The position numbers and the translations under genes were made by a program. From the NCBI GenBank assembly GCA_951406725.2, contig OX597839.1, positions 10,602,001 through 10,666,000 on the forward strand: DNA of 64,000 nucleotides, given 5' to 3'. Below, in pieces: positions 3,265 to 45,495 of this stretch (its first letter is position 1; each line of letters begins with the position of its first letter). Below the pieces are notes generated by a model, which ran no database searches, was not told the DNA's origin, and worked only from the letters and a program-made list of their open reading frames with translations. The stretch comes from Octopus vulgaris. Taxonomy: Eukaryota.

Positions 3265-3313
<49 letters not shown>

Positions 3314-19616: not shown

Positions 19617-20040
19617 TGATTTGGTGGTAATAGTGAGAGTAGACGTGGTAATAGTGGTTGTGGGCGCCGTGATGATGATGGTGGTGGTGGTGGTGGTGGT
19701 GGTGGTGGTGGTGGCCTTAGTGGTGATGGTCGTCGTTGTAATGATAGTAGTGGTGGCGTGGTGGTGTCGGTGGTGTTGCTGGTAGCATCGGAAGTACTTT
19801 TAGTATTTTTTGTTGTTGTTGTTGTTATTAGTCGATGTGATGCTAGCTATGTTAGAAATGGCGGTAGTATTTGTGGTGATGCTGCTGATGGTAGTACTTG
19901 CAGTGTGGTGGTGTTGTGAAATTAATGGTGGTGTAGTAATGGTGGTGGTGGTGGTGGAGGTAGTGGTTGTGATGGTGGTGGTGGAGGTAGTAGTTGTTGT
20001 GGTCGTGGTGGTGGTGGTGGTGGTAGTGGTGGTGGTGGGG
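19480..20040. repeat. (GGT)/(GTA)/(GTT) mosaic trinucleotide tract
   Basis: Direct reading; the poly-Val ORFs are artefacts. Confidence 0.9.
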
Positions 20041-20589
20041 GGGTTAATTCTTCATCCTATTTCCACATTGACTCCTTGCTAAGCTTGAGTCATTAGCTTT
20101 CGAGGGAGTCGTATGGTTTGCCATGGTAACATATCGTATCCTAATTATCACCTTCTGCTAAGGGCCCTCTCAGAGGCATTATAGCCACCCCCAAGGAGTG
20201 GGGGGGAGTTAATCCAACGCACTAATCTTAATTTCAGTAGTAATCATTTATTGACAGCCAACTACAACATACAAAGATCAGAACTGGGTCCCCGGACACG
20301 CGAGATCCCTAAGCACCTGCCTGGTGTGTCCATGCCTTGAGACAACCCTGCCTCTGTTGCGTCCCAACTCCGGAGCTCGACTCTTCGCAAATGATTTGCT
20401 TGTCTATTCCTTGGTGTTTTCCCTTTATATATAGTGCTAGTGCATGCATATACAGCTGTGTGCAAGCGCACATACATGCGAGTACTGTCCAAATCTCCGA
20501 CCAATCACACACAGCTAGCTGGCATTCAATTGGCGTATCAAGATCCAGGCATTTAGATTGGATTTTGGATAGAAAATTCACAAAAAAGT

Positions 20590-20762
20590 CACTTCTATTG
20601 ATTCTTAATGGCTTTGCGGTATGACTGGGGAAATGTAAAGATGTGCACGACCACCCTTGGACGGTTTTGAATGACCATAGAAAGTGCGAGCCCTCTAACT
20701 GAAAAATTGTGGATTTGTATAAAGGACGCACACGCAGACATTTTGCCGTTCATATATAGAGA
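20590..20762 (-). mobile_element. Helitron-like element 5' part (same family as 62267-62491)
   Basis: Reverse complement TCTCTATATATGAACGGCAAAATGTC...CAAAACCGTCCA. Confidence 0.7.
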
Positions 20763-20764
20763 TT

Positions 20765-20890
20765 CTGTCGCGTCTCCTTTCTCTCTTCACGGTTCCTTGA
20801 AGAATGGTCTTTGTATGGCGACTTGATCTCGTTCTATTGCTCCTGTACTATCTCAACTTTTATCTTTGACATCGTTGTGTGATGGTCTTT
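20765..20890 (-). mobile_element. Old RTE LINE remnant
   Basis: KTILQGTVKRERRRDR motif. Confidence 0.55.
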
Positions 20891-21107
20891 GAGTTGAGGT
20901 GCTAATTTGATGCTGGATCGTTTCTCAAATCAGATCGTCAGTGATTTGGTCGAAATGCAAAATAGCTAAGATGCTGTTAAACAATAGCTATTAGCGACAG
21001 AAGCAGCATAATACCAAGAGGTAACATTTATCACCGCTTATACGTGGATATTCTCTTAGAGCAAACCATACTACGTCAGATAATATGAGGGAAACTCTCA
21101 TATTGGT

Positions 21108-21321
21108 TTTTGGTGCAAAATGCACTTTTGGTGCAAAATGTACTTTTGGTGCAAAATACACTTTTAATGCAAAATGCACTTTTGGTGCAAAATCCACTTT
21201 TGATGCAAAGTGCACTTTTAGTGCAAAGTGCACTTTTAGTGCAAGGTGCACTTTTAGTGCAAAGTGCATTTTAGTGCAAAGTGCACTTTTTGTGTAAATG
21301 CACTTTTGGTGCAAAATGCAC
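21108..21321. repeat. 18-bp minisatellite x12, consensus TTTTRGTGCAAARTGCAC
   Basis: 12 units counted (two are 17 bp); each contains GTGCA-NNN-TGCAC. Confidence 0.95.
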
Positions 21322-21438
21322 TCTCATAGTATCTATTATAGTAGATACCATGAGTTACTTGATGGATTCTAAGATCATTCAGAACCAGCAGTACTGTATG
21401 TATGTATGTATGTATGTATGTATGTATGTATGCATGTA

Positions 21439-21993
21439 TTGTTCGAAGGTTTGTAATGGACGCAGGTTCGTGTGTCAAATAGCTAGCTAGCCTCTTGGAG
21501 CTAATCAGCGACAGCTTTAATCTTATATTTATAAGACTGCCATATTAGTATGGCGATAACTATTAATTTCCAGTAACGCTGCCGTAATCTCCTTTAGAGA
21601 GACTTAGTAATTTTAATATTTCTATTATTGAAAACAAGTGGATGTATTCCACTGAAACTAGGTAAATAAAGCATTCGAACTGGGACGATCAGTAGCGACA
21701 CCTGCAAGTCTGACTAAGCTGCATTGATAAGGGGCAACAACCCTGAAACATGTCTGTAGCTGTCTGACTGGCAGGATGAAGCCGCTGACCTCCCTTGTTC
21801 GAAGGTTTGTAATGGACGCAGGTTCGTGTGTCAAATAGCTAGCTTGAGGCGGTGGCCTCTTGGAGCTAATCAGCGACAGCTTTAATCTTATATTTATAAG
21901 ACTGCCATATTAGTATGGCGATAACTATTAATTTCCAGTAACGCTGCCGTAATCTCCTTTAGAGAGACTTAGTAATTTTAATATTTCTATTAT
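21439..21993 (+). mobile_element. Non-coding 1.5-mer (period 356 bp) with hammerhead ribozyme: retrozyme / non-autonomous PLE candidate
   Basis: Near-identical direct repeats at 21439-21628 and 21795-21993; inserted between (TATG)n and (TA)n. Confidence 0.75.
21701..21775 (+). ncRNA. Type I hammerhead ribozyme, U3-A8 core variant
   Basis: AGCTGCA-TTGATAA-GGGG(CAACAA)CCCT-GAAA-CATG-TC-TGTAGCT; stem I extended by GAC/GTC, AGTC/GACT, CCTGC/GCAGG. Confidence 0.8.
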
Positions 21994-22005
21994 ATATATA
22001 TATAT

Positions 22006-22341
22006 AAAGACCCCCTTCGGTCATGAGTGACCATGGGTTTGCACCTAGAGAGTTACCCTCTGAGGCACAAGTCTGGGCAAGGTTGTTTTTATGGAAGACC
22101 AGTAGTCGCCCATACATACCGGCCTCCCCTCTCCACGCCACCAGTGCTATCCAAGGGAAAGACAAAGGTCGATACAGCTTGGCACACGTGACGTCGCAAC
22201 TCATTTCTACAGCTGAGTGAACTGGAGCAACGTGAAATAAAGTGCTTTGCTCAAGAACACAACACACAGCCTGGTCCTGGATTCGAACTCACAACCTCAC
22301 GATCGTAAGCTCGACGCTCTAACCACTGAGCCATGCGCCTC

Positions 22342-22343
<2 letters not shown>
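22006..22343 (-). mobile_element. SINE family C, full length (tRNA head, V-domain-like centre)
   Basis: TGGCTCAGTGG A box, GAGTTCGAATCC B box, GTGTTCTTGAGCAAAGCACTTTATTTCACGTTGCTCC. Confidence 0.88.
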
Positions 22344-22440
<97 letters not shown>

Positions 22441-22674
22441 TATATATATACATATACATACATGCATGCATGCATACAAGCATACATACATATCCAAGGC
22501 ACATTGCCACAGTTAAGCGGAAATTCACAAGGGATAATTATGATATGCAAGATGGTGTTTCCTTTAATTACAACAAAAGTTTGGGGGCATTACACTGCAC
22601 TGTCACACACTTACCATACATACAGAAATACACACATATGTATAACCATACGTGTATACATGTGATTAATAAAG

Positions 22675-22742
<68 letters not shown>

Positions 22743-22857
22743 GCTGCTGTTGTTGCTGTTATTAATATTATTATTATCTTAGGATCGATGTAATCGGTTA
22801 GACCCCTCCCTCGCCAAATTTCGGCCTTGAGCCTGTAATAGAAAGAACTATTATCAT

Positions 22858-22888
<31 letters not shown>

Positions 22889-23193
22889 GTTGGTCAAGTT
22901 TCATTTTGTTAGTATTTTCTTAATATTTAGTTAATATTTTGGCTTTAGCGAGGTCTTTGGGAAGTGGGTCCATCCCATTTGCATGTCTCGGACACCGATG
23001 AGGTTTAACTGTTGCAAATCGAGGACAGTAAGAAAGTCACGTGCAGGAAGGAAATTCTAGGGAGCAAATGTATCGGGAAAGAAGGGATGGGAGTATTTGT
23101 TACTTTGGGTTTTTGGGGAATTTGACGCAACATGGGTGATAAAATGAGGCGAGACTATGGAGCAACACATGCGGAAATAGTGATGGTAGTGAA

Positions 23194-23620
23194 AGGCACA
23201 GGAGTGGCTGTGTGGTAAGTAGCTTGTTTACCAACTACATGGTTCTGGGTTCAGTCCCACTGCGTGGCACCTTGGGCAAGTGTCTTCCACTATAGCCTAG
23301 GGCCGACCAAAGCATTGTGAGTGGATTTGGTAGACGGAAACTGAAAGAAGCCCGTCGCATATATGTATATATATATATATATATATATGCGTGTGTGTGT
23401 TTGTGTGTCTGTGTTTGTCCCCCTAGAATTGCTTGACAACCGATGCTGGTGTGTTTATGTCCCCGTTACTTAGCGGTTCGGCAAAAGAGACCGATAGAAT
23501 AAGTACTGAGCTTACAAAAGAATAAGTCCCGGGGTCGAGTTGCTCGATTAAAGGCGGTGCTCCAGCATAGCCGCAGTCAAATGACTGAAACAAGTAAAAG
23601 AGAGTAAAAGAGTAAGAGTA
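23194..23620 (+). mobile_element. SINE A, full length
   Basis: Consensus match. Confidence 0.92.
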
Positions 23621-38828: not shown

Positions 38829-40190
38829 CTGCAGTGGAGGATTGCCAGTGGATGATTGCAGTTAATGATTTCAGTGGATAATTGCAGTGGATGATTGCAG
38901 TGGATGATTGCCAGTGGAAGATTGCAGTTGATAATTGCAGTGGAAGATTGCAGCGGATGATTGCAGTGGATGATTGCAGTGGATGATTGCAGTGGATGAT
39001 TGCCAGTGGATGATTGCAGTGGATGATTGCCAGTGGAAGATTGCAGTTGATAATTGCAGTGGATGATTGCAGTGGATGATTGCCAGTGGATGATTGCAGT
39101 GGATGATTGCCAGTGGATGATTGCAGTGGATGATTGCCAGTGGAAGATTGCAGTTGATAATTGCAGTGGATAATTGCAGTGGAAGATTGCAGTTGATAAT
39201 TGCAGCGGATGATTGCAGTGGAAGATTGCAGTTGATAATTGCAGTGGATGATTGCAGTGGATGATTGCCAGTGGATGATTGCAGTGGATGATTGCAGTGG
39301 TTGAATGCCAGTGGAAGATTGCAGTTGATAATTGTAGTTGATAATTACAGTGGATGATTGCCAGTGGAAGATTACAGTGGATAATTGCAGTGGATGATTG
39401 CAGTGGATGATTGCAGTAGCTGATTGCCAGTGGATGATTGCCAGTGGAAGATTGCAGTTGATAATTGCAGTGGAGGATTACAGTGGATGATTGCCAGTGG
39501 AAGATTGCAGTTGATAATTGCAGTGGATGATTGCCAGTGGATAATTGCAGTGGTTGATTGCCAGTGGATGATTGCAGTGGATGATTGCCAGTGGAAGATT
39601 GCAGTTGATAATTGCAGTGGATGATTGCAGTGGATGATTGCCAGTGGATGATTGCAGTGGATGATTGCAGTGGATGATTGCCAGTGGATGTTTGCCAGTG
39701 GATGATTGCAGTGGATGATTGCCAGTGGATGATTGCAGTGGATGATTACAGTGGATGATTGCAGTGGTTGATTGCCAGTGGATGATTGCCAGTGGAAGAT
39801 TGCAGTTGATAATTGCAGTGGATGATTACAGTGGAAGATTGCAGTTGATGATTGCAGTGGATGATTGCCAGTGGAAGATTACAGTGGATGATTGCAGTGG
39901 ATGATTGCCAGTGGATGTTTGCCAGTGGATGATTGCAGTGGATGATTGCCAGTGGATGATTGCAGTGGATGATTGCAGTGGATGATTGCAGTGGTTGATT
40001 GCCAGTGGAAGATTGCAGTTGATAATTGCTGTGGATGATTGCCAGTGGAAGATTACAGTTGATAATTGCAGTCGATGATTGCAGTGGATGATTGCAGTGG
40101 ATGTTTGCCAGTGGATGATTGCAGTGGAAGATTGCAGTGGATAATTGCAGCAGAATATGGTAGTGAATGATTACAGCAGATGATTGCAAC
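38829..40190. repeat. 13/14-bp satellite, ~100 units (GATGATTGC[C]AGTG and variants)
   Basis: Direct reading. Confidence 0.97.
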
Positions 40191-44345: not shown

Positions 44346-44654
44346 TTGCAAAATCCATCAACTGAATTATGCAAAAAAAAAAGAAACAATTCCAGGGGAA
44401 TAACTTCATTAGACTAACACAAACTCTGCTAAAGTTATCTCCCTTCACTTCACAAGCCATGACCCTATGTAAAAACAATACTTCGTATCTTTGCAATTAT
44501 TGTTCACTATTTCCACATTATTTCCAAATGTTGGCAGGTTTTTTTCTTTCCACTCAGCCTACAGTTGTTGATTACGCTTTCTGCGCCGCCTTTTGCAGGA
44601 ATCCAGTATGTTCGTGCATGTACATTTGTGTGAGTACACGTATATATAGTAAAA

Positions 44655-45070
44655 AAATACGTATTTCGTCTGCCGCTACGTACTGAGTTCAAATTCCGCC
44701 GAGGTCAACTTTGCCTTTCATCCTTTCGGGGTCGATTAAATAAGTACCAGTTACGCACTGGGGTCGAAGTAATCGACTTAATTCCTTTGTCTGTCCTTGT
44801 TTGTCCTCTCTGTGTGTAGCCCCTTGTGGGTAGTAAAGAAATACGTATTTCGTCTGCCGCTACGTTCTGAGTTCAAATTCCGCCGAGGTCGACTTTGCCT
44901 TTCATCCTTTCGGGGTCGATTAAATAAGTACCAGTTACCCACTGGGGTCGATGTAATCGACTTAATCCCTTTGTCCTTGTTTGTCCTCTCTGTGTGTAGC
45001 CCCTACTTTCTGAGTTCAAATTCCGCCGAGGTCGACTTTATTATTATTATTATTATTATCGTTATTATTA

Positions 45071-45110
<40 letters not shown>

Positions 45111-45304
45111 CATTATTACCGAGGTCGACTTTGCCTTTCATCCTTTCGGGGTTGATAAATTAAGTACCAGTTACGCACTGGGGTCGATGTAATCGACTTA
45201 ATCCCTTTGTCCTTGTTTGTCCTCTGTGTGTAGCCCCTACTTTCTGAGTTCAAATTCCGCCGAGGTCGACTTTATTATTATTATTATTATTATCGTTATT
45301 ATTA

Positions 45305-45345
<41 letters not shown>

Positions 45346-45495
45346 GAGGTCGACTTTGCCTTTCATCCTTTCGGGGTTGATAAATTAAGTACCAGTTACG
45401 CACAGGGGTCGACGTAATCGACTTAATCCATTTGTCTGTCCTTGTTTGTCCCCTCTATGTTTGGCCCCTTGTGGGCAAGAAAGAAATAAGAAATA
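44655..45495 (+). mobile_element. Head-to-tail array of four partial SINE B units, two with internal (TTA)n inserts
   Basis: GAGTTCAAATTCCGCCGAGGTC occurs four times. Confidence 0.9.

Follow-up and report, generated by a model that had tools for sequence, protein, structure and literature searches.

The window analysed here is the whole 64,000-nucleotide stretch of Octopus vulgaris contig OX597839.1, and it contains, between two microsatellites, one insertion of a non-coding tandem repeat that carries a predicted self-cutting RNA motif. The insertion, its parts and its flanks are as follows.

21395..21438, no strand: left flank, a (TGTA)n microsatellite, from the sequence
21439..21993, + strand: whole insertion, one arm of 1.5 retrozyme units (unit positions 167-365 followed by 1-365)
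21439..21628, + strand: upstream partial unit (A), 5'-truncated, a pseudo-LTR whose start is the family truncation hot spot
21629..21993, + strand: complete 365-nt unit of subfamily A, 2.4% different from the nearest sampled copy
21701..21775, + strand: predicted type I hammerhead with extended stem I and with compensatory changes between subfamilies
21718-21723/21755-21760, + strand: stem I, plus 12 distal pairs
21724..21730, + strand: core U3-U4-G5-A6-U7-A8-A9 (TTGATAA), with U3-A8 replacing C3-G8, from sequence and family counts
21731-21744, + strand: stem II, from the sequence
21745-21748, + strand: GAAA, from the sequence
21748..21754, + strand: palindromic helix III ACAUGU (ACATGT at 21748-21753) and C17, with the predicted cut between 21754 and 21755
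21793..21805, + strand: small hairpin at the base of the long stem, the family 5'-truncation hot spot (unit 156-173)
21933..21993, + strand: 61-nt 'tail', from the inner (about 21932) to the outer (21993) fixed 3' end of the family
21994..22005, no strand: right flank, an (AT)n target microsatellite at the 3' end, from the sequence

The original prediction described an A-B-A' layout without an open reading frame, placed between microsatellites, and this description stands. A (21439-21628) and A' (21795-21993) are identical over 50/50 and 139/139 nt on the two sides of a single indel, the longest ATG frame of the unit has 26 aa, and the flanks are (TGTA)n on the left and (TA)n on the right. The indel is a private loss of 9 nt from a small hairpin near 21489 in the upstream unit. 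The period of 356 bp given earlier has to be corrected, since the family period is 360-366 nt and the window unit has 365 nt; the shorter value comes from the upstream copy, in which a single base stands in place of ten in the family. The segment A is not a true LTR but a tandem unit shortened at its 5' end, a product of variable truncation, and its start at the truncation hot spot of the family makes it a pseudo-LTR. Other repeats of the window include an 18-bp minisatellite at 21108-21322 (12 copies of a near-palindromic unit, 115 nt left of the element), a SINE-like common repeat at 22006-22345, directly after the (TA)n flank and very deep in the contig sets examined, and, at 44647-45469 and 38830-40188, tandem 184-236-nt repeats with (TTA)n spacers and a 13-bp minisatellite of about 100 copies.

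The hammerhead is present as it had been drawn, with its stems, TTGATAA, GAAA, ACATGT and a predicted cut after 21754. Three helices surround the core and helix I is open, as in type I motifs, and helix III of the monomer has only 2 bp. When compared with the hammerhead core (C3 U4 G5 A6 N7 G8 A9, G12 A13 A14, A15.1-U16.1, H17), every position conforms except C3-G8, which is U3-A8; position 7 is a free position of the hammerhead. The proximal stem I had been given 7 bp, six of which are found throughout the family, whereas the seventh pair, A21717-U21761, needs a base private to the window copy. The pair 10.1-11.1 is G-U in the window copy and A-U or G-C in most others. Folding agrees with the proposed structure, as the 96-nt hammerhead region and the 365-nt unit reach z = -4.4 and z = -5.7 against shuffles, respectively. 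A search against Rfam did not bear it out, with no hammerhead family among the 44 matches at E <= 10 in 20000-23500; given the U3-A8 core, Rfam and standard descriptors built on C3-G8 would miss such families.

The window element is one copy of a dispersed, protein-free repeat family with a few thousand copies in the 2.8-Gb genome. Units are 362-365 nt long, have a GC content of 42% and carry one hammerhead each. The genome contains 400 exact matches to a 20-mer spanning the window-type core, and 2,496 to a 3'-end word of the unit. The core of subfamily B, which is 362 nt long, about 83% alike to the window type and younger (its copies are 98-100% identical), has 1,090 exact matches. A relaxed U3-A8 hammerhead pattern finds 2,852 matches versus 48 with a reversed control. 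The unit is also covered by contigs of seven runs presumed to be RNA, which may hold DNA and in which strand, ends and circles are not readable; one 379-nt contig from such presumed-RNA runs, again possibly DNA, spans the whole B unit without a difference.

The variant core is the common state of this family. The search with C at position 3 gave 16 rows, made up of 12 family copies with C3-A8, three C3-G8 motifs and one chance-like match; the three C3-G8 motifs have unlike stems, and the one checked is unrelated to the family. The U3-G8 core has seven matches. Single-mutant cores thus number 19 versus 2,852 U3-A8 pattern matches, and the genome core-pattern searches contain no family copy with C3-G8, so that U3-A8 is the family state rather than a product of decay. 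TTGATAA is a consensus at the subfamily level, the proposal of a selected variant core is strengthened, and the opposite case, in which other copies would show CTGATGA with random decay, is not what the genome contains. Two further hammerheads were met at other loci. The one at L252:1450-1590 has a canonical core and a long stem I, and it was considered as a canonical-core ancestor of the unit and rejected for lack of homology. A short element at L079:1459-1546, with a canonical C3-G8 hammerhead, a palindromic ACUAGU helix III and a (TA)n end, is probably a different retrozyme family.

Changes between subfamilies follow the predicted fold. N7 is U, A or C depending on the subfamily, while positions 3, 4, 5, 6, 8 and 9 are invariant, and the pair 10.1-11.1 is G-C in 57, A-U in 47 and G-U in 11 of 115 insertions. 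Helix III is palindromic in 111 of the same 115 insertions (ACGCGU 62, ACAUGU 47, ACGU 2), a sample partly chosen for intact cores, and in 90 of 96 family rows counted by hand among the first 100 relaxed-pattern matches listed, where ACUAGU occurs five times as an additional palindrome. The youngest subfamily keeps U3-A8, restores G10.1-C11.1 and has swapped one palindrome for another. Among 24 distinct units, four pairs of the named structure are changed on both sides, compared with 0-1 in slid controls; seven of 500 shuffles reach the same count, which is not a probability because the covariation rests on few subfamily branches. RNAalifold over the unit likewise gives four pairs with changes on both sides. 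A fixed core with N7, 10.1-11.1 and helix III varying by subfamily shows signs of selection on the putative ribozyme fold. Moreover, the two loop bases of helix III can find partners only in a second ribozyme. Substitutions that leave the sequence palindromic therefore point to dimeric cleavage, and we infer that the predicted ribozyme acts as a dimer through helix III, the role that the original prediction gave to the palindrome, which is here maintained through sequence change.

The anatomy of the insertions was read in 152 cases, a few of which are segmental duplicates; 30 loci were picked by their likeness to the window copy and many others by an intact core or by the 3' word. Two back-to-back arms are found in 88 insertions, a single arm in 58 and a more complex arrangement in six. 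The 3' ends lie at two fixed places about 60 nt apart, an outer one at unit 355-365 and an inner one at 295-307, and 72 of the 88 two-armed insertions combine one of each. (AT)3 directly follows 202 of the 225 fixed 3' ends, a raw count. The 5' ends vary, with a hot spot at unit 156-173: of the 187 arms obtained other than through the 555-nt query, 41 start there, in equal proportion among later laps (21/95) and first laps (20/92). In the 5' junctions of L133 and L143, the upstream 12 and 8 nt are the reverse complement of the bases just past the small hairpin, and these junctions read as fold-back copying of the cDNA end.

The full tandem dimers expected by the original prediction exist, and arrays reach about 7.5 units. 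The tandem junction is exact in 181 of 191 cases and the cut site is without indels in 233 of 247, so the template is continuous across both. Private variants are common to all units of an insertion in L121, L122 and L131, and across both arms in L131. Units of one insertion differ by 0.4% in subfamily B and 5.7% in subfamily A, versus 1.9% and 8.1% between insertions; a strict test, in which the nearest unit must lie in the same insertion, is passed by only 17/41 units of B and 5/21 of A. Two apparent mixed A/B insertions, at L093 and L100, were rejected, one being a separate insertion and the other a scrambled B arm. Seamless tandems and shared variants fit a circular as well as a linear multimer template.

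Tested against the features of retrozymes, the family shows a non-coding unit in the range of 150-450 bp, a GC content under 50%, one type I hammerhead per unit, tandem dimers to multimers and many genomic copies, and by these sequence criteria the element is an animal non-LTR retrozyme. Its insertions have at the same time the anatomy of Penelope-like elements (PLEs), with partial tandems, an inverted 5' copy, a tail on one side and a microsatellite target. The earlier proposal left a choice between a circular-RNA replicon and a non-autonomous PLE, and insertion anatomy lends direct support to the PLE-mobilised, non-autonomous reading.

The genome contains two young families of coding PLEs, whose frames are intact and whose ends lie in (TA)n. 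Both have a CX2-5CxxC linker, the motif by which their clades were named. The first has a 775-aa frame with RT and GIY-YIG endonuclease in a unit of about 4,980 nt, and two 3' ends about 30-36 nt apart. The second has a 4,504-nt unit with a 1,077-aa frame counted from Met, in which RVT_1 is above and GIY-YIG below the cut-off, and one 3' end only; it is very abundant (150 of 150 scored matches are 97-100% alike over 76 aa). Neither matches the unit well, as inverted arms occur in 3/23 copies of the first and 0/21 of the second versus 88/152 insertions of the unit. The unit has no sequence similarity to either family, their 3' ends share nothing with it beyond shuffles, and a 12-13-nt word common to the unit and the second PLE was dismissed, being not above shuffles (31/300, 12/300). 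The absence of homology extends to the pLTRs of both families, so the unit is not the pLTR of either coding PLE examined, the case named beforehand as contrary to the proposal. Unlike an autonomous EN+ PLE, the unit has no RT plus GIY-YIG frame.

Both coding families have hammerhead-like motifs of their own, although an Rfam scan of five PLE loci gave nothing at gathering score. The motif of the first (L072:6287-6495; L041 and L085:6180-6240; G000:C2:70378000-70386000 and others) lies about 130-160 nt before its two 3' ends and has a U3-A8-like core, a palindromic helix III and GCAA replacing GAAA; GAAA is present in an older copy, and the core of a 70% relative is the normal C3-G8. In the second family (L242:2211-6714; G000:C2:120410500-120418500) the motif is a minimal hammerhead with CUGUUGA (A6U) and a UU cut site, found in all sampled copies showing a hammerhead. 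Two hammerheads 3.9 kb apart on one strand, tried as a possible full-length PLE, turned out to lie in copies of another repeat, without an RT frame.

One insertion joins the retrozyme to a coding PLE. The B insertion at L130 has an inverted arm (unit 232-362, 1-44) that runs into the second PLE at position 3281, through a junction with short near-homology and without a microsatellite; downstream lie the endonuclease (GIY-YIG) region of that PLE and then its own 3' end in (AT)n, and the other arm stops at the inner 3' end of the unit. No second copy of the junction was found among 40 scored matches. Read most simply, one round of reverse transcription started on an RNA of the PLE and then moved to one of the retrozyme; a subsequent deletion between adjacent elements could also have produced the fusion. 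Among 20 non-standard 3' ends, two lead into the second PLE (L130 and L036) and none into the first. L036 is not counted as a second clean fusion, as its junction is present inside a nest of several insertions; at L036:2127-3809 this nest holds retrozyme pieces together with the 3' ends of two different hammerhead-bearing PLE-like repeats. The hints to a carrier are divided: insertion anatomy resembles the first family more, and the fusion points to the second.

The reading that we consider probable is that of a predicted self-cutting dimeric hammerhead repeat with a U3-A8 core, likely forming a circle and likely copied into (TA)n by the RT and GIY-YIG endonuclease of a PLE; that is, an animal non-LTR retrozyme family likely copied by PLE enzymes. 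Tandem copies would be transcribed, two hammerheads would pair through the palindromic helix III and cut, and the unit-length RNA released, being ligatable, could close into a circle. A PLE endonuclease would nick (TA)n, and each DNA end would prime copying at either of two AU-rich RNA sites (unit 365 and about unit 304), so that the arms lie back to back and only one of them has the 61-nt tail. The enzyme would then pass the cut site and the junction between units, completing up to several laps, and would stop most often at unit 156-173, where the cDNA would at times fold back on itself. On this view the window copy is a single arm of 1.5 laps halted at the hot spot, and hence its A-B-A' layout. 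The complete chain, with an RNA circle, dimeric U3-A8 ribozymes, selection at the RNA level, no pLTR parent, PLE priming at both (TA)n ends and a template switch in L130 that names the carrier, is put forward tentatively, at somewhat less than an even chance.

A different template is conceivable, namely linear read-through multimer transcripts of a non-autonomous PLE derivative whose hammerhead only trims or rarely cuts, with no circle. Seamless tandems and shared variants would suit it as well, and a hot spot in every lap is expected if each linear unit keeps its hairpin, the equal strength in later laps being also a point against a circle combined with pure RNA-hairpin stalling. Cleaved linear RNAs would also explain why 5' ends pile up weakly just past the cut site, with 10 of 187 arms at 126-133 (P = 0.004 uncorrected); windows 83-90 (11) and 244-253 (14) are equally high, and the pile-up is therefore not claimed as a sign of cleavage in vivo. 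Against linear templates, long arrays have private changes in common, both arms often copy the same variant, and related repeats of mussel, coral and axolotl accumulate mainly as circles in the available text of PMC7229834, so that we regard this reading as unlikely. Much less probable still is a parent among unsampled coding PLEs, whose pLTR or 3' end would be the unit and whose truncation products would be the copies. PLE-like anatomy, the homology of Xenopus retrozymes to pLTRs (10.64898/2026.07.22.740005, as available) and U3-A8 in PLE hammerheads (PMC4209133, as available) would agree with such a parent, two coding families were examined in full and part of the about 2,500 unit ends were read; however, at 191 tandem junctions the base before position 1 is position 365 of another unit, the upstream flanks of the 58 single arms have no common sequence (one pair had the same adjacent repeat), no PLE frame runs into the unit from upstream at 143 loci searched with one protein query, and neither coding family resembles the unit.

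If the repeat were satellite-like or had been duplicated passively, and its hammerhead were an inactive relic with two CpG-type or random changes and no selection, the missing Rfam match would be accounted for, and hammerhead activity is a prediction. Yet the youngest subfamily, with its high identity and many core matches, keeps U3-A8, restores G10.1-C11.1 and exchanges one palindrome for another, and single-mutant cores are few; this explanation is highly improbable. If the complete chain set out above, with a circle rolled in by a Penelope-type enzyme, is true, the family offers a 362-nt minimal substrate for studying the tandem, inverted and tailed insertions of PLEs.

The retrozyme class, the U3-A8 swap and the link to PLEs are already published. 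The original prediction of a selected variant core is supported, since the U3-A8 pair is maintained, but its surprise was overstated, as natural U3-A8 cores and mollusc retrozymes of 350-390 bp were on record. The literature covered, with most subscription journals outside its scope, yielded no description of this family and none of retrozyme insertions with two ends. The mobilisation of retrozymes is stated as open (PMC7229834, 10.64898/2026.07.22.740005, available text), and so is the way in which PLEs make tandem, inverted, one-tailed insertions (PMC8557442, available text). The family is young, short and abundant, its ends are fixed, and with two intact candidate enzymes in the same genome and one fusion it opens both questions to tests with small constructs. 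As a retrozyme variant that combines PLE-type footprints with a fixed U3-A8 core, it overturns nothing, and it brings the mobilisation question within reach of experiment.

The known systems are compared here as they are described in the available portions of the cited sources. Animal non-LTR retrozymes of mussel have units of 350-390 bp, and their circles have been shown (Cervera and de la Pena 2020, PMC7229834). The case that animal retrozymes are non-autonomous PLE derivatives is made in a 2026 preprint, which reports similarity to PLE pLTRs for 21 of 57 Xenopus retrozyme families and finds in vitro cleavage for only one of nine predicted Xenopus dimers (Li, Clavereau and Pollet, 10.64898/2026.07.22.740005). 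The octopus family is like these retrozymes in its non-coding 362-365-nt unit with 42% GC and one type I hammerhead, in its thousands of copies as dimers to multimers, in its self-paired fold and in co-existing with PLEs proposed as the carrier. Unlike the retrozymes so described, it has a core fixed at U3-A8, predicted cleavage and a putative circle, and dispersed, two-armed insertions with two fixed 3' ends in (TA)n; unlike the 21 Xenopus families, its unit does not resemble the pLTR of either coding PLE examined.

U3-A8 is a natural, active covariation (Perreault et al. 2011, PMC3088659), and Schistosoma mansoni has about 1,300 PLE-type motifs with U3-A8 near PLEs, in a report that also describes dimeric hammerhead cleavage via a palindromic helix III (Cervera and de la Pena 2014, PMC4209133). 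The present motif has in common with these PLE-associated hammerheads the U3-A8 covariation and a palindromic helix III thought to act in dimers, but it sits in a non-coding unit and, unlike the minimal PLE motif, is canonical (helix I 6 bp, II 4 bp, III 2 bp) with a long distal stem. PLE insertions are tandem, inverted, one-tailed and targeted to microsatellites (Craig et al. 2021, 10.1101/2021.04.23.441226), and the CX2-5CxxC linker is given for Neptune and Nematis PLEs (PMC8557442). The insertions of the octopus family resemble those of EN+ PLEs (Neptune, Naiad) in 5' truncation, partial tandems or pseudo-LTRs, an inverted 5' copy, a tail at one end, (TA)n targets and no clear target-site duplication (10.1101/2021.04.23.441226, PMC8557442), and differ in a unit that is 365 nt when whole, has neither an RT nor an endonuclease frame and leaves a tail of about 60 rather than 30-40 nt.
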